64,000 nucleotides of DNA from a virus (taxonomy: Duplodnaviria; Heunggongvirae; Uroviricota; Caudoviricetes), in IMG/VR virus record IMGVR_UViG_2872147552_000001; one strand, written 5' to 3'. The notes below the pieces were generated by a model. That model did not search any database, was not told the origin of the DNA, and saw nothing but the letters and a program-made list of their open reading frames with translations. The position numbers were made by a program, and so were the translations under genes. Within the stretch, counting starts at the first letter, position 1; each line of letters begins with the position of its first letter. This document shows, one piece after another, positions 9,891 to 56,251 of this stretch.

Positions 9891-11924
9891 TTACTTAACC
9901 TGGTGGCCAGGTTTAGCACCAGCATCCGGGCTTAACAGGAAGATATCTTTCCCGCCGGGGCCAGCAGCCATCACCATGCCTTCAGAGATACCGAAGCGCA
10001 TTTTACGTGGTGCCAGGTTAGCCACCATAATGGTGTGACGACCAATCAGTGCCTGTGGATCTGGATAAGCGGAACGGATGCCTGAGAAGACATTACGCTT
10101 TTCACCACCGAGATCCAGCGTCAGGCGAAGCAGTTTGTCAGAACCTTCTACAAACTCTGCGTTTTCAATCAGCGCCACGCGCAGGTCAACTTTGGCGAAG
10201 TCGTCAAAGGTGATAGTTTCCTGAATCGGGTCGTCAGCCAGTGGGCCAGTTACCGGTGCGGCTGTGGCTTTCACTTCTTCTTTGGATGCTTCCACCAGTG
10301 CTTCAACCTGCTTCATATCGATGCGGTTATACAGTGCCTTGAACGGATTTACTTTATGGCCCAGCAGCGGTTGCTGGATACCATCCCAGGTCAGTTCTGT
10401 ATTCAGGAATGCTTCTGCACGTTCAGTCAGTTTCGGCAGTACCGGCTTCAGGTACGTCATCAGCACGCGGAACAGGTTAATGCCCATAGAGCAAATCGCC
10501 TGCAGATCGGCATCGCGACCTTCCTGCTTCGCCACCACCCACGGAGCCTGTTCATCGACATAGCGGTTAGCCAGGTCAGCCAATGCCATGATTTCACGGA
10601 TAGCTTTACCAAATTCGCGGCTTTCCCATGCTTCGCCAATCACTTCAGCGGCATCAGTAAAGGTTTTGTACAGTTGCGGGTCAGCCAGTTCGCTTGCCAG
10701 CACGCCGTCAAAACGCTTGTTTATAAAGCCTGCATTACGGGAGGCCAGGTTAACCACTTTGTTCACGATATCGGCATTCACGCGCTGAACGAAATCCTCC
10801 AGGTTGAGATCGATATCATCAATGCGCGAAGAGAGTTTCGCAGTGTAGTAGTAACGCAGGCTGTCGGCGTCAAAATGATTCAGCCAGGTGCTGGCTTTAA
10901 TAAAGGTGCCGCGAGACTTGGACATCTTCGCGCCGTTCACCGTCACATAGCCGTGAACAAACAGGTTGGTCGGCTTGCGGAAGTTGCTGCCTTCCAGCAT
11001 GGCAGGCCAGAACAGGCTGTGGAAGTAAACAATATCTTTACCGATGAAGTGGTACAGCTCGGCGGTGGAGTCTTTCTTCCAGTATTCATCGAAGCTGGTG
11101 GTATCGCCGCGCTTGTCGCACAGATTCTTGAAGGAACCCATGTAGCCAATCGGCGCGTCCAGCCAGACGTAGAAATATTTGCCCGGCGCGTCCGGAATTT
11201 CAAAACCGAAGTAAGGCGCATCGCGGGAGATATCCCACTGTTGCAGGCCGGATTCAAACCATTCCTGCATTTTGTTCGCCACCTGCTCCTGCAACGCGCC
11301 GCTGCGGGTCCATGCCTGCAACATTTCGCTGAAAGAAGGCAGATCAAAGAAGAAGTGTTCGGAATCACGCATTACCGGGGTAGCGCCAGAAACCACCGAT
11401 TTCGGCTCGATCAATTCAGTCGGGCTATATGTTGCGCCGCAGACTTCACAGTTATCGCCGTATTGATCTGGCGCTTTACATTTCGGGCAGGTGCCTTTTA
11501 CAAAACGATCCGGCAGGAACATGCCTTTTTCCGGGTCGTACAACTGAGAGATAGTGCGGTTTTTAATAAAACCGTTCTCTTTCAGGCGAGTATAGATAAG
11601 CTCAGACAACTGACGGTTCTCTTCGCTGTGCGTCGAGTGATAGTTGTCATAGCTGATGTTAAAGCCTGCGAAATCAGTCTGGTGTTCCTGACTCATTTCG
11701 CCAATCATCTGCTCCGGTGTGATACCAAGCTGCTGCGCTTTCAGCATGATCGGCGTACCGTGGGCATCGTCGGCACAGATGAAATTAACCTCGTGGCCGC
11801 GCATTCGCTGGTAACGAACCCAGACATCAGCCTGGATGTGCTCCAGCATATGGCCGAGGTGGATTGAGCCGTTAGCGTACGGCAGCGCGCACGTCACCAG
11901 AATTTTCTTCGCGACTTGGGTCAT
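9891..11924 (-). CDS. metG: methionyl-tRNA synthetase
   Basis: 677 aa from [26 protein letters not shown] (HIGH motif) with KMSKS and C-terminal tRNA-binding domain; very close to enterobacterial MetG from memory. Confidence 0.9.
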
Positions 11925-12081
11925 AGTAGGCATTACTTCTTTGTAGTGAAAAGGGGCTTGATAGTAACAAAATGGCCTTATGTCTGCCATGTGATAACAG
12001 CATTTCTCATAAATGATTAAATGTCGTAGCTGGAGTACACTACAAGGCGACAATTGCGCAAATTAAAATAAAGGAGACGGG

Positions 12082-13182
12082 ATGAGCGAGTCCAAATCGC
12101 CGGATGCCCTGAGAGCAATGGTAGCCGGTACGCTGGCTAATTTTCAGCACCCAACCCTGAAACACAACCTGACTACGCTTAAAGCGTTACACCATGTTGC
12201 GTTGATGGATGACACACTGCATGTCGAACTAATCATGCCTTTCGTGTGGAATAAGCCTTTTGAAGACCTGAAAGAGCAATGTAGTGGTGATCTGCTCCGT
12301 ATCACTGGCGCAAAGGCTATTGACTGGAAGCTGTCGTACAACATTGCCACGCTTAAGCGCGTCAAAAACCAACCAGGCATTAATGGCGTTAAGAACATTA
12401 TCGCCGTCAGCTCAGGCAAGGGCGGCGTGGGTAAATCCTCCACGGCGGTAAACCTGGCACTGGCGTTGGCTGCTGAAGGTGCGAAAGTTGGTATTTTGGA
12501 TGCCGATATCTATGGTCCATCAATTCCAACCATGCTGGGTGCGGAAAACCAACGTCCAACCTCACCTGACGGTACTCACATGGCACCTATCATGTCTCAT
12601 GGCCTGGCAACCAACTCTATTGGTTATCTGGTCACCGACGACAATGCAATGGTGTGGCGTGGACCGATGGCCAGCAAGGCGCTGATGCAGATGTTGCAGG
12701 AAACTCTATGGCCTGATCTGGACTATCTCGTTCTCGATATGCCGCCGGGCACTGGTGATATTCAGTTGACGCTGGCGCAGAACATTCCTGTAACTGGTGC
12801 GGTTGTGGTAACTACGCCGCAAGACATCGCGCTGATCGATGCGAAGAAAGGCATTGTGATGTTCGAAAAAGTCGAAGTGCCGGTACTGGGTATCGTCGAA
12901 AACATGAGTGTGCATATTTGCAGTAACTGCGGTCATCACGAGCCAATTTTTGGCACCGGTGGCGCACAGAAACTGGCCGAGAAATACAACACGCAGTTGT
13001 TAGGCCAAATGCCACTTCATATCTCTCTTCGTGAAGATCTGGATAACGGAACACCAACCGTTATTAGTCGTCCAGATAGCGAATTTACGGCTATTTATCG
13101 TGACCTCGCAGATCGCGTTGCCGCCCAAATGTATTGGCAAGGTGAAGTAATACCTGGCGAAATCGCATTCCGCGCAGTGTGA
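12082..13182 (+). CDS. apbC: Fe-S cluster carrier ATPase ApbC/Mrp
   Basis: P-loop SSGKGGVGKS, CxxC (CSNCGHH); divergent from metG as in enterobacterial chromosomes. Confidence 0.9.
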   Translation: MSESKSPDALRAMVAGTLANFQHPTLKHNLTTLKALHHVALMDDTLHVELIMPFVWNKPFEDLKEQCSGDLLRITGAKAIDWKLSYNIATLKRVKNQPGINGVKNIIAVSSGKGGVGKSSTAVNLALALAAEGAKVGILDADIYGPSIPTMLGAENQRPTSPDGTHMAPIMSHGLATNSIGYLVTDDNAMVWRGPMASKALMQMLQETLWPDLDYLVLDMPPGTGDIQLTLAQNIPVTGAVVVTTPQDIALIDAKKGIVMFEKVEVPVLGIVENMSVHICSNCGHHEPIFGTGGAQKLAEKYNTQLLGQMPLHISLREDLDNGTPTVISRPDSEFTAIYRDLADRVAAQMYWQGEVIPGEIAFRAV

Positions 13183-13183
13183 T

Positions 13184-13210
13184 AAAAAGGCGGTGCATTG
13201 CACCGCCTAA
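13184..13210. terminator. bidirectional terminator between apbC and umuD'-like gene
   Basis: aaaaaggcggtgcattgcaccgcc hairpin; T-run on minus strand. Confidence 0.6.
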
Positions 13211-13219
13211 TCAGTTCTC

Positions 13220-13609
13220 CTACATCACGGGACAATCATCAAACTCGCCACTTCTTGCGTCGTTGATAATGTGAGTGATCACACCAAACACGGCATTGCT
13301 GCCCGTGCATCCATCGTCATCCTTTGGCAATGCTTCCTTCTTACCGGTTCTTAAATCCTCCAGATGCTGACGTGGGTACTTCCGGTATCTTTTTACGCGA
13401 TATTCCCCATCCAGAGCGCATACAAGCAGAGAACCATCAACCGGGGTAAGCGAGGAATCGACCACCAGCAATGCACCCTGTAATATTCCCTCACGATGAT
13501 GACTATCAGCTGCCCTCATGAAGTAGGTCGCTGAAGGATGTCTAATTATCTGCTGATCAAGAGAAATACGGCTCTCAGCATAATCCGCCGCAGGAGAAGG
13601 GAAGCCCAT
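13220..13609 (-). CDS. umuD: UmuD'-like protein (pre-truncated, HumD-like)
   Basis: 129 aa beginning M-GFPSPAADY, the residue after the UmuD self-cleavage site; retains S24 peptidase fold motifs (HPSATYF, Ser and Lys positions). Confidence 0.7.
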   Translation of the reverse strand: MGFPSPAADYAESRISLDQQIIRHPSATYFMRAADSHHREGILQGALLVVDSSLTPVDGSLLVCALDGEYRVKRYRKYPRQHLEDLRTGKKEALPKDDDGCTGSNAVFGVITHIINDARSGEFDDCPVM

Positions 13610-13625
13610 AGCGTTTTGCCCTCAA

Positions 13626-13645
13626 TACTGTTCATTTATACAGTA
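13626..13645. promoter_or_regulatory. LexA (SOS) box
   Basis: TACTGTtcatttatACAGTA = CTGT-N8-ACAG, 17-36 nt upstream of the umuD'-like start. Confidence 0.7.
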
Positions 13646-13728
13646 TACATGAAAGAAGCTCACTCAGTGCAACTGATCGGTACATAGCACCAGACAAAGG
13701 AACGTTATTTTCTCGAACAAGAAAAGGT

Positions 13729-13743
13729 AGAAAACAAATTGTT
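13729..13743 (-). promoter_or_regulatory. class A palindromic motif
   Basis: gaaaacaaattgttt; part of the 50-bp unit repeated at 18003-18038. Confidence 0.45.
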
Positions 13744-13744
13744 T

Positions 13745-13765
13745 AAGGCCACAACTAGTGGCCTT
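13745..13765 (-). terminator. conserved GGCCAC hairpin
   Basis: aaggccacaactagtggcctt right after the gene ending at 13782. Confidence 0.45.
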
Positions 13766-13781
13766 AATGGAGAAGGGATGC

Positions 13782-14306
13782 TTATTGGCTATGGCTAAAA
13801 ATCAAATGAGACACTTCATTTGGTTGTAGCTCGTCAAGATCCGGGGCCACAAAACCTTTTCCAAAAGACTTCACAAGTGATTCACCAGCCGCATCATTGT
13901 CACCTATTACGCGAAAGTCATACGGCAGCATTGCCAGTTGACGACGTAATCCTGCTGAGAAAGTCGAACCTAACAGCGCCCACGAATTTCCGCCCGCGTT
14001 GTGCACTGCTGCACTTTTAAAAATCGACTCAGTTATCCATATCGGTCCATCTTTTAAAGGAAGATAGGTTCCCCATAGTAGCTGTCTGCCGTTCGCTCGT
14101 GTGAAATACCGGGCCATCTTCGGATTGCTATGCTGCTTAGGAGCGCCTGGTCTGTATGTCTGATACCCGGCCAACATCCCATCAAACCTGTATAGAGGGA
14201 ACGTAACAACTCCTTCGCTTTCATCGATCCACTGTCTATATGGATGCACATCATGGCGGTAGTTACGAGTTAGCAAATGAGCTTCCAGCTTTCCATATTT
14301 GGTCAT
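13782..14306 (-). CDS. hypothetical protein
   Basis: ORF track frame; start at MTKYGK ATG (alternative ATG at 14345 would overlap the upstream gene). Confidence 0.4.
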   Translation of the reverse strand: MTKYGKLEAHLLTRNYRHDVHPYRQWIDESEGVVTFPLYRFDGMLAGYQTYRPGAPKQHSNPKMARYFTRANGRQLLWGTYLPLKDGPIWITESIFKSAAVHNAGGNSWALLGSTFSAGLRRQLAMLPYDFRVIGDNDAAGESLVKSFGKGFVAPDLDELQPNEVSHLIFSHSQ

Positions 14307-46420: not shown

Positions 46421-48760
46421 TTACTCTTCTACTGACTCGGTGGGGTTGTCTTTTGCTCTTCGGTCGTCGATTGCCTGCAAAGCCGCAATGATTTCAGCCA
46501 GTGGCTTCTCCCGATACATCTCGACGATCTGCGATTTGGTGTATTTCTTGTCACCAATTTCAACTCGCCCGCTGGCGTTCTTTGGCAGGTATCCTTCTTC
46601 CAGCATGTACTCGACGAGCGATTCGATAACGTCGAGGCCACGAGTAGGATCGAAGTAGAATTTCCAGGTGCATTTGCCATACGGTGGTGCAACTTTGTTT
46701 TTGATGCATTCTGCGCCTACGTCCTGGCCGATCTTCTCTTTACCATCCTTCATCACCGATGCACCAAGACGGATACGTACAGAAGCGTAGAACTTCGGTG
46801 AATCTCCACCTGGCGACGTAGTAGGGTCGCCAAACATTACACCGATTTTTGTGCGAACCTGATTCAAGAAGATGATGCAGGCGTTGTATTTGCGTGCCCA
46901 CAAAGCCAGAGTAGGGAAGTTCGCACTCGTCGCACGAGCCAGTGCCGTATTGTCGTTCATGTTTAGCTGATCTTTGTCTTTGGCAGTGCCTTCAGCCATC
47001 TTTTCGAACTTCTCGGCTTTGGAGTTCGGAACCATAGACGCAAGAGAGTCAGCCACGATACAGATTGGTGCTGATTCGGGGATAAGCTCTTCATCACGAA
47101 CCAATTTAAGTATTGTGCCGATCAACTCTACAGAGTCTTCGAAGGTATCTGGCTGCTTGTATACCCACTGACCGTCATCCTCATCTGCGTTCAGGCCATT
47201 GGCGACAGCCAGGCCAACGTCAAAACTGTTTTCATGATCGAGGAATACCGCCAGACCATCCTGTTTTTGTGCTGACACCATCGCAGCCGTCGCGAGGAAT
47301 GTGTTGTGGCTGATAATCCCGTTAGACCAGAAAGAGTGTGTTTCCGGCATCGCTACGTCGAACGTTGGTGCTTCACCTTCCTCAATAGCCACGACTTCGT
47401 CGTAGAACAAGTTAGAGCCAATTACCGCTGCCAGTTGTGCAAACAGATGCTCGTTAAAACGATTCTTTCTGCCAATGAAGGAGACATAGATTTCTCGCAG
47501 TTTGTCTATTCCGACACGATCGCCGCGGCCAATAACGTGGTCTACCAGAGCGTAGTCTTCACGGGTGGTCTTGGTGAGCGACTCGTAGAGTGATTTCACT
47601 AAGCCGCTGATGTGCGGAACATAGCCTGAGTAAGTGCGGTCAAAACCAATGTCCCGTTTGGTTGCCACTGATAAACGTGCCGGAGATTCGAAACCAATCG
47701 TTGACAGAAAAAGGTCGTAATTAGAGCCACTGAATGACAGCCGGTAATATGTATTTTCATAACCCGCGACGTGTTTTTCAGAGATAGTTGACGTAATCCC
47801 CAGATTCAGGAGCATGAGGCGAATTTGCTGTAGCAGCAGCCCACTCGCGCTCACAACCTCAATGCAGCGACCATCATTGACGTGGCATTCCAGCTCAAAG
47901 TAGCCGCGAAGGAATGCAATTTGAGCCTCGCTATTGGCGCGACGCACACTCAACGGAACCTGCTTGCCAGCAGCTTTCTCATACTCCAGACCATATTCTT
48001 TAAAAAGCAGCGAACGCACCTCTTTGCTAAACAGCACATGGTCTTCCGAGCCGTTATGTTTTCTCGTAACTGGCATCTTGTCTGATACCAGCGAAATGAG
48101 GCGGTAGTACTCATCCTTGATGAATGGATCTGTGTTAGAAAAATGCACAGAATTTTCAGAGGCCACGTATCCGTCAGCAATTAAATAGCCCATCAGTTTT
48201 GCGATATTGGCATCCAGGTGCTGATCGCCGAATTGATGTGTGCCAACCATTGAAGGAATCGTGTCGCCTACACTGATTTTTTCAGCATACCGCCAGACGA
48301 TATTGCCTAAGTCGTCAACCACACGGATTGGGTGACGGAACGTAGCCTCGATGTAACCCCCTGATGCCAGCTTAATGCGCTTGAATTTGCGACGGTTGTT
48401 CCATGTCAGGTGTGAGGTCTTCTCTATCACGCCATTTTCATTGATGAGTCCAACGTTATGCTCTACATCGCGAGTAGTGCATGTCGCTTTGTACCCTTCA
48501 ATCTCAAACAACTCTTTCACTGTTACCATTCCACGCTCCGTCAGCAGCATGGTGTCTGCGGTAACACATTTCCCCGCACTTGGTGGCCCGAATACTTCTA
48601 CGATACGACCACATGGGAAACCGCCATCGTAACGACCGGAAATAGCTTTGTTTAACGGAGGAAAGCCTGTGTCAATCCAATGAGTTACTTTCTGAATTTC
48701 GTCGTTGCTACCGATTTTCTTTTTCAGAGCAAGTGCCAGTGCGGATTTTCCTTTTGCCAT
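46421..48760 (-). CDS. RecA-family recombinase interrupted by an intein
   Basis: Exteins GRIVEVFGPPSAGK|TF, QPDT.E, IIFLNQVRTKIGVMFGDP, KFYASVRIRL match RecA motifs; 422-aa insert after the Walker A lysine. Confidence 0.7.
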   Translation of the reverse strand: MAKGKSALALALKKKIGSNDEIQKVTHWIDTGFPPLNKAISGRYDGGFPCGRIVEVFGPPSAGKCVTADTMLLTERGMVTVKELFEIEGYKATCTTRDVEHNVGLINENGVIEKTSHLTWNNRRKFKRIKLASGGYIEATFRHPIRVVDDLGNIVWRYAEKISVGDTIPSMVGTHQFGDQHLDANIAKLMGYLIADGYVASENSVHFSNTDPFIKDEYYRLISLVSDKMPVTRKHNGSEDHVLFSKEVRSLLFKEYGLEYEKAAGKQVPLSVRRANSEAQIAFLRGYFELECHVNDGRCIEVVSASGLLLQQIRLMLLNLGITSTISEKHVAGYENTYYRLSFSGSNYDLFLSTIGFESPARLSVATKRDIGFDRTYSGYVPHISGLVKSLYESLTKTTREDYALVDHVIGRGDRVGIDKLREIYVSFIGRKNRFNEHLFAQLAAVIGSNLFYDEVVAIEEGEAPTFDVAMPETHSFWSNGIISHNTFLATAAMVSAQKQDGLAVFLDHENSFDVGLAVANGLNADEDDGQWVYKQPDTFEDSVELIGTILKLVRDEELIPESAPICIVADSLASMVPNSKAEKFEKMAEGTAKDKDQLNMNDNTALARATSANFPTLALWARKYNACIIFLNQVRTKIGVMFGDPTTSPGGDSPKFYASVRIRLGASVMKDGKEKIGQDVGAECIKNKVAPPYGKCTWKFYFDPTRGLDVIESLVEYMLEEGYLPKNASGRVEIGDKKYTKSQIVEMYREKPLAEIIAALQAIDDRRAKDNPTESVEE
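47303..48568 (-). mobile_element. intein with LAGLIDADG homing-endonuclease domain
   Basis: Insert begins Cys (CVTADTMLL) and ends HN before Thr; LMGYLIADGYV and LRGYFELECHVND motifs. Confidence 0.6.
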
Positions 48761-52717: not shown

Positions 52718-52745
52718 AACCCGCCAGTTGGCGGGTTTTCTTTAT
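52718..52745. terminator. bidirectional terminator
   Basis: aaacccgccagttggcgggttttctttatt. Confidence 0.6.
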
Positions 52746-55700
52746 TACTTATTTATCGTCTCCGCGATATCAGCCAGAATGGCCTCCAGTCGCTCTCCTT
52801 CTTCCGGTCGGAAGTACAGGATATTCGGGTTAAATCCGTAGAAGACGGTTGCATCAAGCTCCGGGAAGTACTCCTTACGACCAATCAGATCTGATGGTTT
52901 ACTCTTATTGTTAAATAGTGCGGTTGAACGACTACCACACGTCAAAATGTAGGTTGGTCGTACAAGATTAATTTCTTCCCGCATAAAGTCTGTGAACTGG
53001 CCTATCTCGTCTTTGGTATAGTCTTTCTCTTTGTCCTTAACCTTCTTACAAACACCCGTGACATAAAGATCGCCCATGCGCAGATCTCCAACTGTCAGTA
53101 GTTTTGCCTTAAAGTCGTCGTATCCGTTCTCCATGAAGTAGCCGGTACGAGCGTCATTGCCGTTCGCATTGTCCAGAATGATCATGATTTTGGGTTTAAT
53201 ACCAATAGTCGGGCGTATCAACTCCTCACCCAAGCCCATTTCAGCCGCCATACGTGTCATGAGTACGTTGATTTCGGCAGAACGCTTAGGATTCATTTCG
53301 AACGGACGTGATGCTTTAACAGCGTCAATGATGAGATTGCCCATCAGCTCAGCCTGGTCGCGCAGTCGTTCAGGATCAGTTGCTGGCAGACTGCCTGGCT
53401 CAATTGACGCAAAAGCCCCTACTTTATGAAGCGACTCGCGTACACGACTGTTACATGCACGCTTCTCGACCGCTTCATCGAATTGTGCCACTGACTCGAA
53501 TTTGCCACCAACTTTCTCACGCGCACGCATAATTGCCTGACAACCATTTTCAGAACAGCCTTTCACAGCAGAGAATGGCGCATACAGTGCCTGACTGCCG
53601 TCTTCGAGTGTGCGGATCTCAATTCGGTTAGATGACACATTAACGTCTGGTGGCAATACGCGAATGCCATAGGTCAGCGCATCCTTCACCAGCCCCTGAT
53701 GCTTATCCTCGCCCAGAATGGTGAGCGCAGCTGCGAAGAACTCAGCAGGGTAGTGCGTCTTTAGCCACATAGACTGATAACTGATTAAAGAATAAGCAAC
53801 GGAGTGTGATTTGTTGAAGGCATATCCACCGAACTTCTCAAAGGCGTCCCATATTTCTTGGGCTTTTTCCTTACTGAGACCTTCTTGTTCAGAGACGATC
53901 TCCACGTAGTCTATGCCGTCACTAATAGCCTCGCTGTAGCTTCTACGCTTACCGTCTGAGCAATCCAGTTTTGCGTGTTTGTGAACCTCTACAGTACCTC
54001 CATTTTTGAGTGACAGTGTCACCCAGCCTGCTTGTGCTCGTTCTACAAAATCGCTGCCGATCGCTTTCATCTTATCCATGTTCTTTTTACCGATAGCGGA
54101 ACGCAGAGCGTCTGCTTCGGCCATAGAGAACCCGGCAAGTACTCGGGAACTTTGCATGATTTGTTCCTGATAGAGCAAAACACCATTAGTCTCCCGGGTG
54201 ACTTCCTCAAGACGCGGATGAATTGAATGTGGAGCCATAAAGCCTTTGGCTACAGAAACATAGTCATCCAACATGCCTGACTGAATTGGCCCCGGCCGGA
54301 AGAGTGCAGTCGTAGCAACAACCGTTTTAAAGCTCATTGGCTCAATTCCACCACCTAAATCTTTAAGCAGCTTGCGCATTGGGCCTGATTCAAGCTGGAA
54401 AACACCTTGAGTGTACCCAGCAGCAAAACCATCCAGCACCTTGCGATCTTCAAGAGAAATGGCATCAAGATTGATATCTTCACCTGTGTTCTCTTTTATG
54501 TAGCGTTTTGCACTATCGAGCAAATCGAGAGTTGCCAGACCAAGTACGTCCAGCTTAATTAGGCCCATAGCCTCGCAGTAACGCTTGTCAAATGCGATAC
54601 AACGCGCGTCACCACGGCGTTCAACCGGTGTACGTTCTGTCAGAGGAACACCTGCTACGATCATCCCTGCCGCATGTCTACCAAAGCCACGCATAAGGCT
54701 TTGTAACTTGCAGGCTGCATTGAATGCATCAGGATATTTTGTTGCGTATTTGTCGAGACTTGCCAGTTGTTCGCGCAGCTCTTCCAATGGAAGGCTATCA
54801 TCCTCGACGTTCTTCAGTTCTTTTGATACCGCCATATCTGCGGACTCCACACCATAAATACGAGCGGTGTCACGTAGTGCAGATGCCGCGCCCAGATAGG
54901 TGAAGTTCGGAATGCCTGCAACGTAATCTTCGCCGTAGCGTTCATTCAGATACTCGATCACCTCATGGCGACGTGCCTGGCTGAAGTCCAAGTCCGCATC
55001 CGGCAAGTCGAGACGCTCAGGGTTGATGAAACGCTCAAACAGAAGACCGTGACGGATTGGGTCGACGTTGGTTATGCCTATGCACCACGCCACCAGAGAA
55101 CCGGCAGAGGAACCACGACCAGGCCCAACGGGAATGCCAGTTTCACGACTATGATTCATCAGATCGCGTACCATCAGGAAGTAACCACAAAATCCCAGGC
55201 GAGTCAGCGTGTCCATTTCGTACTTTAGCCGCTCAACATAAACCCTGTTCTCAGAAGCAGGTGGTGTGTAGCCAAACTCTTTTGTGGTAAGACGTTTACG
55301 CAGCCCTGCAACAGCCAGCTTCATAAGCGTTGCAGGCTCGTCGTCTGCCATCTTTGGCAGTGCTGGCGGCAATTCATGCCAGCGCCATGTGCAGGCATCG
55401 ATAATGGTATCCTGCGTTGTTGAGGCCATTGCAGCTGTTACCGGCACATCCATGCGAACGGAGAAGGCTTTAAGCGCCTCAAGGAGATGGCGGCGACCAT
55501 TGACGGCGTTATCTCGCTGGTGGGGGATACGCAGACGATGCGGCTGGTCGATTTTGATGTTGTTCGTAACCATGTGCGCAATGTCTTTAATGTCTGCATC
55601 GTCGATCGATTCGTAATAAGCGGGATAGAACGCCACTGGCTCTATTTTCAATGCGCTGGCGACTTTCATCGCCCGGACGTTAATCTGGTCGTAGAATGGG

Positions 55701-56251
55701 GTAGGATGCGGATAAACCACACTATAGAAGTTGTCTTTTCCACCCGCTGTAATCAGTGTGCTTATGATTTTTGCAAAATCGTTGCGTTGGAACACGCTAC
55801 CGATGTCGGAAGTAAGCAGGATGATGTTGCCTTTGGCATATGTAGAAACCAACTGTTCGAGCGAGAGACGCGGTACAAAGTAGAACTGTTCTCGTGTGTT
55901 GGCCGCCGTCATTAGTTCGCAGATGTCGCGATATCCTTGCTCATTTTTAATTAGAGCGGTAAACGAGTAGTTACGTCCCCGCTCTAATGATTCCATACAT
56001 CTCATAGATTCTTTAGCAAGTTTAGCCCGGTGCTCGTATGTGGGATCATCAACAATGTTTAGTTTCACACCACAAATAACCGCCATGTCGTCACCAGCGG
56101 CACGTTGTAGTGGAATAACGCTCGCAATATTCATGCTATCTGCTGAAATTACAGCGGTGTAGCCAGCTTCTCTGGCAATCTTCACCGCGTTTTCTGCTTT
56201 TAGAGCCGACTCCCCAAGTGAGAAGTCAGTTCGAACCATCAGTGCCTTCAT
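52745..56251 (-). CDS. dnaE: DNA polymerase III alpha-type (DnaE family, PHP + polymerase core)
   Basis: 1168 aa; GYAFNKSHSVAYSLISYQSMWLKTHYP and other DnaE core motifs. Confidence 0.8.
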   Translation of the reverse strand: MKALMVRTDFSLGESALKAENAVKIAREAGYTAVISADSMNIASVIPLQRAAGDDMAVICGVKLNIVDDPTYEHRAKLAKESMRCMESLERGRNYSFTALIKNEQGYRDICELMTAANTREQFYFVPRLSLEQLVSTYAKGNIILLTSDIGSVFQRNDFAKIISTLITAGGKDNFYSVVYPHPTPFYDQINVRAMKVASALKIEPVAFYPAYYESIDDADIKDIAHMVTNNIKIDQPHRLRIPHQRDNAVNGRRHLLEALKAFSVRMDVPVTAAMASTTQDTIIDACTWRWHELPPALPKMADDEPATLMKLAVAGLRKRLTTKEFGYTPPASENRVYVERLKYEMDTLTRLGFCGYFLMVRDLMNHSRETGIPVGPGRGSSAGSLVAWCIGITNVDPIRHGLLFERFINPERLDLPDADLDFSQARRHEVIEYLNERYGEDYVAGIPNFTYLGAASALRDTARIYGVESADMAVSKELKNVEDDSLPLEELREQLASLDKYATKYPDAFNAACKLQSLMRGFGRHAAGMIVAGVPLTERTPVERRGDARCIAFDKRYCEAMGLIKLDVLGLATLDLLDSAKRYIKENTGEDINLDAISLEDRKVLDGFAAGYTQGVFQLESGPMRKLLKDLGGGIEPMSFKTVVATTALFRPGPIQSGMLDDYVSVAKGFMAPHSIHPRLEEVTRETNGVLLYQEQIMQSSRVLAGFSMAEADALRSAIGKKNMDKMKAIGSDFVERAQAGWVTLSLKNGGTVEVHKHAKLDCSDGKRRSYSEAISDGIDYVEIVSEQEGLSKEKAQEIWDAFEKFGGYAFNKSHSVAYSLISYQSMWLKTHYPAEFFAAALTILGEDKHQGLVKDALTYGIRVLPPDVNVSSNRIEIRTLEDGSQALYAPFSAVKGCSENGCQAIMRAREKVGGKFESVAQFDEAVEKRACNSRVRESLHKVGAFASIEPGSLPATDPERLRDQAELMGNLIIDAVKASRPFEMNPKRSAEINVLMTRMAAEMGLGEELIRPTIGIKPKIMIILDNANGNDARTGYFMENGYDDFKAKLLTVGDLRMGDLYVTGVCKKVKDKEKDYTKDEIGQFTDFMREEINLVRPTYILTCGSRSTALFNNKSKPSDLIGRKEYFPELDATVFYGFNPNILYFRPEEGERLEAILADIAETINK

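Follow-up and report, generated by a model that had tools for sequence, protein, structure and literature searches.

An orphan, SOS-box-controlled umuD'-like gene of the HumD family on an SSU5-like phage-plasmid of Escherichia coli

The open reading frame on the minus strand at 13220-13609 of the DNA analysed here (64,000 nucleotides, referred to below as the window) is almost certainly an orphan gene of the HumD family under the control of an SOS box. It possesses all the defining features of the family that can be tested by sequence, and it is an ordinary, known member that RefSeq already annotates as such. Its modest significance lies in its setting: the SOS-controlled humD cassette known from phage P1 is standard equipment also in the E. 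coli branch of the SSU5-like phage-plasmids.

The window is part of an SSU5/pHCM2-like phage-plasmid of E. coli of about 110 kb. The humD region is collinear with E. coli plasmids of about 108-112 kb at 98-99% identity, and those relatives that are annotated belong to the SSU5/pHCM2 type of phage-plasmids, with genes for tail, capsid, terminase, partition and DNA metabolism. The window also encodes a class I ribonucleotide reductase, CobT/CobS-like proteins, an SbcC-like ATPase and a tyrosine recombinase, together with the following genes:

9891-12053, minus strand: metG (methionyl-tRNA synthetase), the element's own copy, conserved in the relatives of about 110 kb
12082-13182, plus strand: apbC (Fe-S carrier), the element's own copy, conserved in the same relatives
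52745-56251: gene for a DnaE-type Pol III alpha subunit

A chromosomal island beside metG and apbC was considered as the setting and rejected, since the entire window is collinear with plasmids of about 110 kb that bear their own metG and apbC; chromosomal copies of apbC in E. coli match that of the element at just 80-90% nucleotide identity. Cyrano, an SSU5-like phage-plasmid, is maintained at a copy number of about 5.5 per cell, and ciprofloxacin induces it 39-fold (PMC9928086).

SSU5-like phage-plasmids are frequently found in clinical isolates, and resistance genes are often part of their cargo, CTX-M-15 in one relative being an example. This relative, the 98%-identical E. coli plasmid p48956_3, has ISEcp1-blaCTX-M-15 in its variable early region, at a distance of about 6 kb from humD (locus L002, 15136-17920), and HumD-bearing phage-plasmids of this type are therefore resistance vectors. 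A separate observation concerns a 779-aa RecA/DnaB-like ATPase (46421-48760, minus strand), which is split by an intein that contains a LAGLIDADG homing-endonuclease domain; the corresponding helicase of a relative has 446 aa and is annotated without an intein.

The humD reading frame and its product

The elements of the reading frame are as follows:

13220-13609, minus strand: humD CDS for a pre-truncated UmuD' homolog of 129 aa, with a TAG stop (from the ORF list)
13220-13255, minus strand: C-terminal codons of HumD, the tail-encoding end of humD
13619-13623, minus strand: Shine-Dalgarno sequence GAGGG, 9 nt 5' of the humD ATG (read from the sequence)
13622-13624, minus strand: in-frame TGA stop, five codons (15 nt) 5' of the humD ATG

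The product of 129 aa, translated from the minus strand as MGFPSPAADYAESRISLDQQ...NDARSGEFDDCPVM, begins with MGFPSPAADY. Under the rule that an ORF starts at the start codon first met after a stop, the ATG at 13609-13607 is the earliest start possible in this frame, and the TGA 15 nt before it means that an N-terminal extension or arm cannot be encoded. Gly2 of HumD is aligned by HMMER (against 1umu, 1i4v and 8gmt) to Gly25 of E. coli UmuD, the residue directly after the Cys24/Gly25 site of RecA*-stimulated cleavage, and MAFFT gives the same result. The initial annotation, which proposed that the protein starts exactly behind the cleavage site of UmuD and is made in the UmuD' form, and which called for alignment with UmuD and P1 HumD, is borne out on both points by these alignments, by the upstream stop codon and by the lack of the N-terminal arm; the identity to P1 HumD is 91.5%.

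The family assignment rests on a full-length match to the NCBIfam equivalog NF051876 ("HumD family translesion DNA polymerase"), in which residues 1-129 align to profile positions 1-129 with 219.8 bits against a cutoff of 120 bits. The Peptidase_S24 domain (Pfam PF00717) is matched with 37.9 bits (gathering score 23.3), and HMMER against PDB chains finds residues 2-118 to be homologous to the solved UmuD' structure 1umu (E = 6.7e-23). HumD is 100% identical to the HumD protein of Escherichia phage Cyrano (pLF82). In a large protein database 561 homologs were found at E <= 1e-5; most of those listed have 125-130 aa, and many of the 561 are already named "HumD family translesion DNA polymerase", the name that PGAP also gives to the copy on the 98%-identical plasmid. 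Comparison of humD with its P1 counterpart gave dN/dS = 0.055 (dS = 0.77), hence strong purifying selection acts on HumD.

Two other identities were tried and rejected. UmuD proper (NF007621) reaches 87 bits, below its cutoff of 110, and besides, the arm is impossible here and umuC was not found in the window. The LexA repressor (TIGR00498) reaches 27.2 bits, below its cutoff of 110.95, with the match limited to the C-terminal domain. Some homologs bear names like "LexA family transcriptional regulator" in the databases; these are mis-annotations.

The equivalents of the catalytic residues Ser60 and Lys97 are kept in HumD (ADSHH and VKR), and the alignment with UmuD shows a one-residue deletion just before the Asp-Ser pair. 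Across the HumD-type proteins in the alignment, the Ser column holds S, T, Q or Y and the Lys column K, M or R; this variability is expected because self-cleavage is no longer needed. The loss of these residues had been named beforehand as an argument against the HumD assignment. Both are present in this protein, in agreement with the assignment, but the yardstick itself is not diagnostic, since genuine HumD-type proteins vary at both positions.

All HumD-type proteins have in common an acidic C-terminal tail of about 10 extra residues (..NDARSGEFDDCPVM; ..SGEFDDCPVM), which is absent from UmuD and UmuD'. Within the alignment of HumD-type proteins N116, D117, D124, D125 and P127 are invariant, giving the family motif ..ND.R..E[FW]DD.P... 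An AlphaFold2 model built on a 22-sequence alignment had a mean pLDDT of 49.8, too poor for interpretation of the tail.

The LexA box, the transcription unit and the missing umuC

The signals that flank the reading frame are listed below:

13626-13645: LexA (SOS) box, TACTGTTCATTTATACAGTA, reading TACTGTATAAATGAACAGTA on the coding strand, at -36 to -17 from the humD ATG
13642-13647, minus strand: TATACT, a candidate -10 hexamer found by eye, which overlaps the LexA box over the first four bases of the box; a prediction only
13667-13672, minus strand: candidate -35 hexamer TTGCAC, with a spacer of 19 nt to the candidate -10; a prediction only
13188-13208: intrinsic terminator of humD, a GC-rich hairpin between the convergent apbC and humD, with TTTTAT after it on the minus strand (terminator scan)
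13743-13767, minus strand: terminator-like hairpin at the end of the upstream toprim-gene operon (terminator scan)

The box has no mismatch to TACTGT-N8-ACAGTA and agrees with the 20-nt LexA consensus at 17 of 20 positions, and it is identical at 20 of 20 positions to the annotated LexA site of P1 humD/lxr. None of the 300 block shuffles of the window contained a site that scored 17/20 or higher, and sites of at least 16/20, of which two were observed, had a shuffle mean of 0.003 per window. The geometry is that of the E. coli umuDC operator, which lies at -39 to -20 and scores 18/20. The segment 13626-13645 is thus probably a LexA-type operator, a reading that the conservation of the box supports.

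The second site of this strength, CACTGTATAAGTAAACAGTA at 61945-61964 (16/20), is found 27 nt 5' of the ORF of the tyrosine recombinase (Phage_integrase; 60815-61918, minus strand) and directly 3' of a promoter-like TTGATC-17-TAATAT. With 0.003 such sites expected per window, the tyrosine recombinase of the phage-plasmid therefore also looks SOS-controlled.

A scan for consensus promoters found no canonical sigma-70 promoter on the coding strand of humD; the TTGCAC hexamer occurs in P1 at an equal distance from the LexA box, although the flanks differ. An Rfam scan of 13000-14000 found no Rfam family. With hairpins on both sides, humD looks like a monocistronic cassette of its own.

A partner gene was sought with E. 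coli UmuC as the tblastn query. No match better than E = 4.4 was obtained in the 64-kb window, and the best match in the 98%-identical complete plasmid of 110.85 kb, covering the stretch beyond the window and the humD neighbourhood, had E = 1. Thus the two further features put forward in the initial annotation, an SOS box of the form TACTGT-N8-ACAGTA at 17-36 nt upstream and the lack of an adjacent umuC-like gene, were both recovered, and the search for an overlooked neighbouring umuC, named there as what could overturn the reading, turned up none in the window or the plasmid stretches. The partner gene is available in the host species: of 5426 complete E. coli genomes, 5423 contain umuC.

Conservation of the locus across relatives

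The same arrangement was recovered at three levels of relatedness. The closest set consists of 80 IMG/VR loci whose HumD is at least 91% identical, and every one of them carries a LexA box, scoring 16-19/20 and placed at -36 to -39. These loci comprise 17 variants of the box and 17 upstream flanks, the CTG/CAG arms always being retained, and umuC was found within 4 kb in none of the 80. In plasmid pRHB23-C03_2, apbC and humD match those of the window at 99.6%, the match ends at the humD start codon, and the unrelated region 5' of humD again has a perfect TACTGT-N8-ACAGTA, TACTGTATGTGTATACAGTA, at -37.

Near-identical SSU5-like plasmids behave alike in that their homology breaks at the humD ATG or a few tens of bases 5' of it (window 13610-13660; relative L175, 2211-2420; query positions 711, 748 and 761). 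This marks the upstream region as a recombination junction whose cargo varies. Every variant upstream region examined still provides a LexA box.

More distant members were taken from eight phage records with 46-91% identity, namely P1, N15 gp26, phiKO2 gp23, HK140, HK639, an Enterobacter phage, Aeromonas pAEv1818 and Hafnia yong1. All eight proteins start at the equivalent of Gly25 and all eight genes have a box of 16-18/20, proximal in seven and, in HK140, 282 nt upstream with a small ORF after it; umuC was found in none of these records.

The widest survey was a species-level scan of contigs from one genome per species, in which 43 loci with the HumD-type C-terminal motif were found, mostly titled Enterobacterales, and N-termini were judged relative to the Gly25 equivalent. 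The start codon stands immediately before the Gly in 38 of the 43. An upstream box of at least 15/20 is present at all of them, at -34 to -66 in 30 loci, at about -280 or -305 in 12 and at -124 in one. Only one has umuC within 5 kb; for comparison, classical umuD loci in the same scan have umuC in 24 of 25 cases, mostly directly downstream. Across the 80 viral loci, the 43 genomes of the species-level scan and the 8 phage records one package recurs, in which the N-terminal arm is missing, a LexA box precedes the gene, umuC hardly ever accompanies it and the protein ends in the family-specific tail.

Two loci in which a pre-truncated gene adjoins umuC deserve separate mention. Cedecea sp. S5-13 (locus L125, 5001-6654) has a HumD-type gene, without N-terminal arm, with the C-terminal motif and with a box at -35, followed 11 nt later by a umuC whose product is 84% identical to E. 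coli UmuC, that is, a natural humD-umuC operon. A Chitinophagaceae MAG of the Bacteroidota (locus L160, 5001-5378) has a pre-truncated umuD' (MAFPSPAKDY...) directly 5' of umuC, without the HumD tail and with the DSM kept, apparently of independent origin.

Proposed function and comparison with known systems

[quoted passage not shown] The RefSeq record of P1 carries the note "functionally complements E. coli UmuD'" on humD and a LexA protein_bind feature just upstream. Replacement of UmuD' in vivo, with binding to UmuC and to RecA filaments, is known for P1 HumD alone. Binding of LexA, partnership with UmuC and a mutagenesis phenotype, and with these the boost to host Pol V mutagenesis suggested earlier for this locus, would follow here by analogy with the published work on P1 HumD. 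On that basis, the locus would very probably be a humD cassette complete in itself and repressed by LexA, made up of a terminator, a promoter that bears the SOS box, an RBS, the ORF of 129 aa and a second terminator, and it would supply pre-activated UmuD' for the UmuC of the host.

The proposed course of events starts with the undamaged cell, in which host LexA would sit on the box overlapping the likely -10 hexamer and keep humD off. After damage, RecA* would trigger the self-cleavage of LexA, and humD would be transcribed alongside the umuDC operon of the host. HumD would be born in the UmuD' form, with neither the 24-residue arm nor the cleavage site, and would for this reason bypass the slow RecA*-dependent step from UmuD to UmuD'. 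A HumD dimer would then join host UmuC and RecA-ATP in a Pol V-type translesion polymerase, and the outcome would be more damage tolerance and more SOS mutagenesis for the host and for the element at its 5 copies. UmuC-dependent mutagenesis is probably the main function of HumD, and the humD-umuC operon of Cedecea favours the partnership of the two proteins. P1 HumD is reportedly poorly expressed, with good complementation only from a high-copy vector. If HumD does lift Pol V activity during an SOS response induced by quinolones, carriage of such elements could slightly raise the supply of mutations under antibiotics, an idea that is not new.

Among the other explanations, the one that holds up best is that HumD mainly modulates RecA* filaments in a DinI-like manner, damping or tuning SOS, recombination or prophage induction, and is not a mutagenesis factor. 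P1 HumD is said to bind RecA filaments, and the UmuD'2C complex inhibits RecA-mediated recombination. The genomic neighbourhood in some phages points in the same direction, because a dinI homolog adjoins the humD-type gene in phiKO2 and HK140, and in phiKO2 an annotated LexA site lies between the divergent humD-type gene and the dinI homolog; the element is itself SOS-inducible, as the induction of Cyrano indicates (PMC9928086). Against it stand the UmuD' complementation in mutagenesis given in the P1 annotation and the papers citing it (PMC7092418) and the Cedecea operon in which a humD-type gene is joined to umuC. RecA* modulation and partnership with UmuC can moreover coexist and are not mutually exclusive. 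As the main role of HumD, RecA* modulation is considered unlikely.

The C-terminal tail gives rise to a further proposal, which we regard as quite unlikely: the HumD lineage, with its relaxed Ser-Lys dyad and its gain of an invariant acidic tail (E-F-D-D-x-P), may dock a partner other than UmuC, such as the DnaE-type polymerase of the element, the beta clamp or RecA*. If this were true, the job of HumD would be the management of element replication or induction during SOS, not host mutagenesis. Another alternative, in which HumD partners the element's own replication machinery instead of host UmuC and adapts phage-plasmid replication to damaged templates, draws on the DnaE-type Pol III alpha encoded in the window (52745-56251), on the position of humD within about 1.5 kb of hot, a homolog of Pol III theta, in P1 and D6, and on the HumD-specific EFDDCPVM, a sequence with no counterpart in UmuD' that could be a docking peptide. 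UmuD and UmuD' are also said to bind Pol III subunits. HumD-type genes are, however, just as frequent in lambdoid and N15-like phages, which have no polymerase gene, and a dedicated role in the replication of the element is considered very improbable. That the ORF is a decaying umuD remnant, or a chance ORF beside a chance palindrome, as the variable Ser-Lys dyad and the one-residue deletion beside the Ser might suggest, is effectively refuted by the conservation data, namely the dN/dS of 0.055 against P1, the 561 homologs at E <= 1e-5, the presence of the locus's own RBS, box and terminators, and the retention in every relative examined of a box whose chance expectation is near zero, and it has next to no probability left.

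Read as a LexA-repressed source of UmuD', the locus can be compared with four known systems. The nearest is P1 HumD (P1_gp103, NF051876), which also has 129 aa and shares the M-GFPSPAADY start and the C-terminal tail. P1 is likewise a plasmid-prophage of E. coli and likewise lacks a umuC partner, and its humD has the identical 20-bp LexA box, at -39 as against -36 here, with the Shine-Dalgarno sequence GAGGT in place of GAGGG. The two elements are unrelated, the present gene residing on an SSU5-like siphovirus phage-plasmid, and the nucleotide homology is limited to window 13221-13656 (ORF, RBS and box; 86%). The neighbours of humD are apbC and the toprim-gene operon here, whereas they are lxr/hot and phd-doc in P1, where the divergent lxr shares the LexA box; there is no such gene here. 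The proposal that the locus follows the logic of P1 HumD is nevertheless well founded, given the identity of 91.5%, the LexA box that agrees base for base and the orphan state.

N15 gp26, phiKO2 gp23 and the "UmuD-like" morons of HK140, HK639 and other lambdoid phages belong to the same family at 46-73% identity and are pre-truncated, LexA-boxed and orphan, with the same C-terminal motif. They differ in being placed between tail-fibre genes and int or sop, and in several of them Ser60 is replaced by Thr, Gln or Tyr, or Lys97 by Met or Arg. In the HK140-type loci the box is found about 280 nt upstream, before a small leader ORF, as compared with -36 here.

E. coli UmuD/UmuD', the accessory subunit of Pol V (1UMU, 1I4V, 8GMT), shares the S24 fold region and is 42% identical over UmuD residues 25-139. 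In comparison with UmuD, HumD lacks the 24-residue arm, the umuC operon and the Cys-Gly site, and the absence of this cleavage site means that there is no RecA*-dependent activation step; HumD also has the one-residue deletion before Asp-Ser and about 10 added C-terminal residues. The full-length umuDC operons of Klebsiella phage ST846-OXA48phi9.2, Cronobacter phage ENT39118 and Salmonella phage Oslo also place a UmuD homolog on a mobile element, but with its own umuC immediately downstream. The UmuD proteins of ST846-OXA48phi9.2 and ENT39118 retain the N-terminal arm and the cleavage site, unlike HumD. A LexA box was found in two of these three records, ENT39118 and Oslo (in the latter upstream of the annotated, 5'-truncated umuD), and none was found in ST846-OXA48phi9.2; the humD of P1 and that of the present phage-plasmid have one and the same box.
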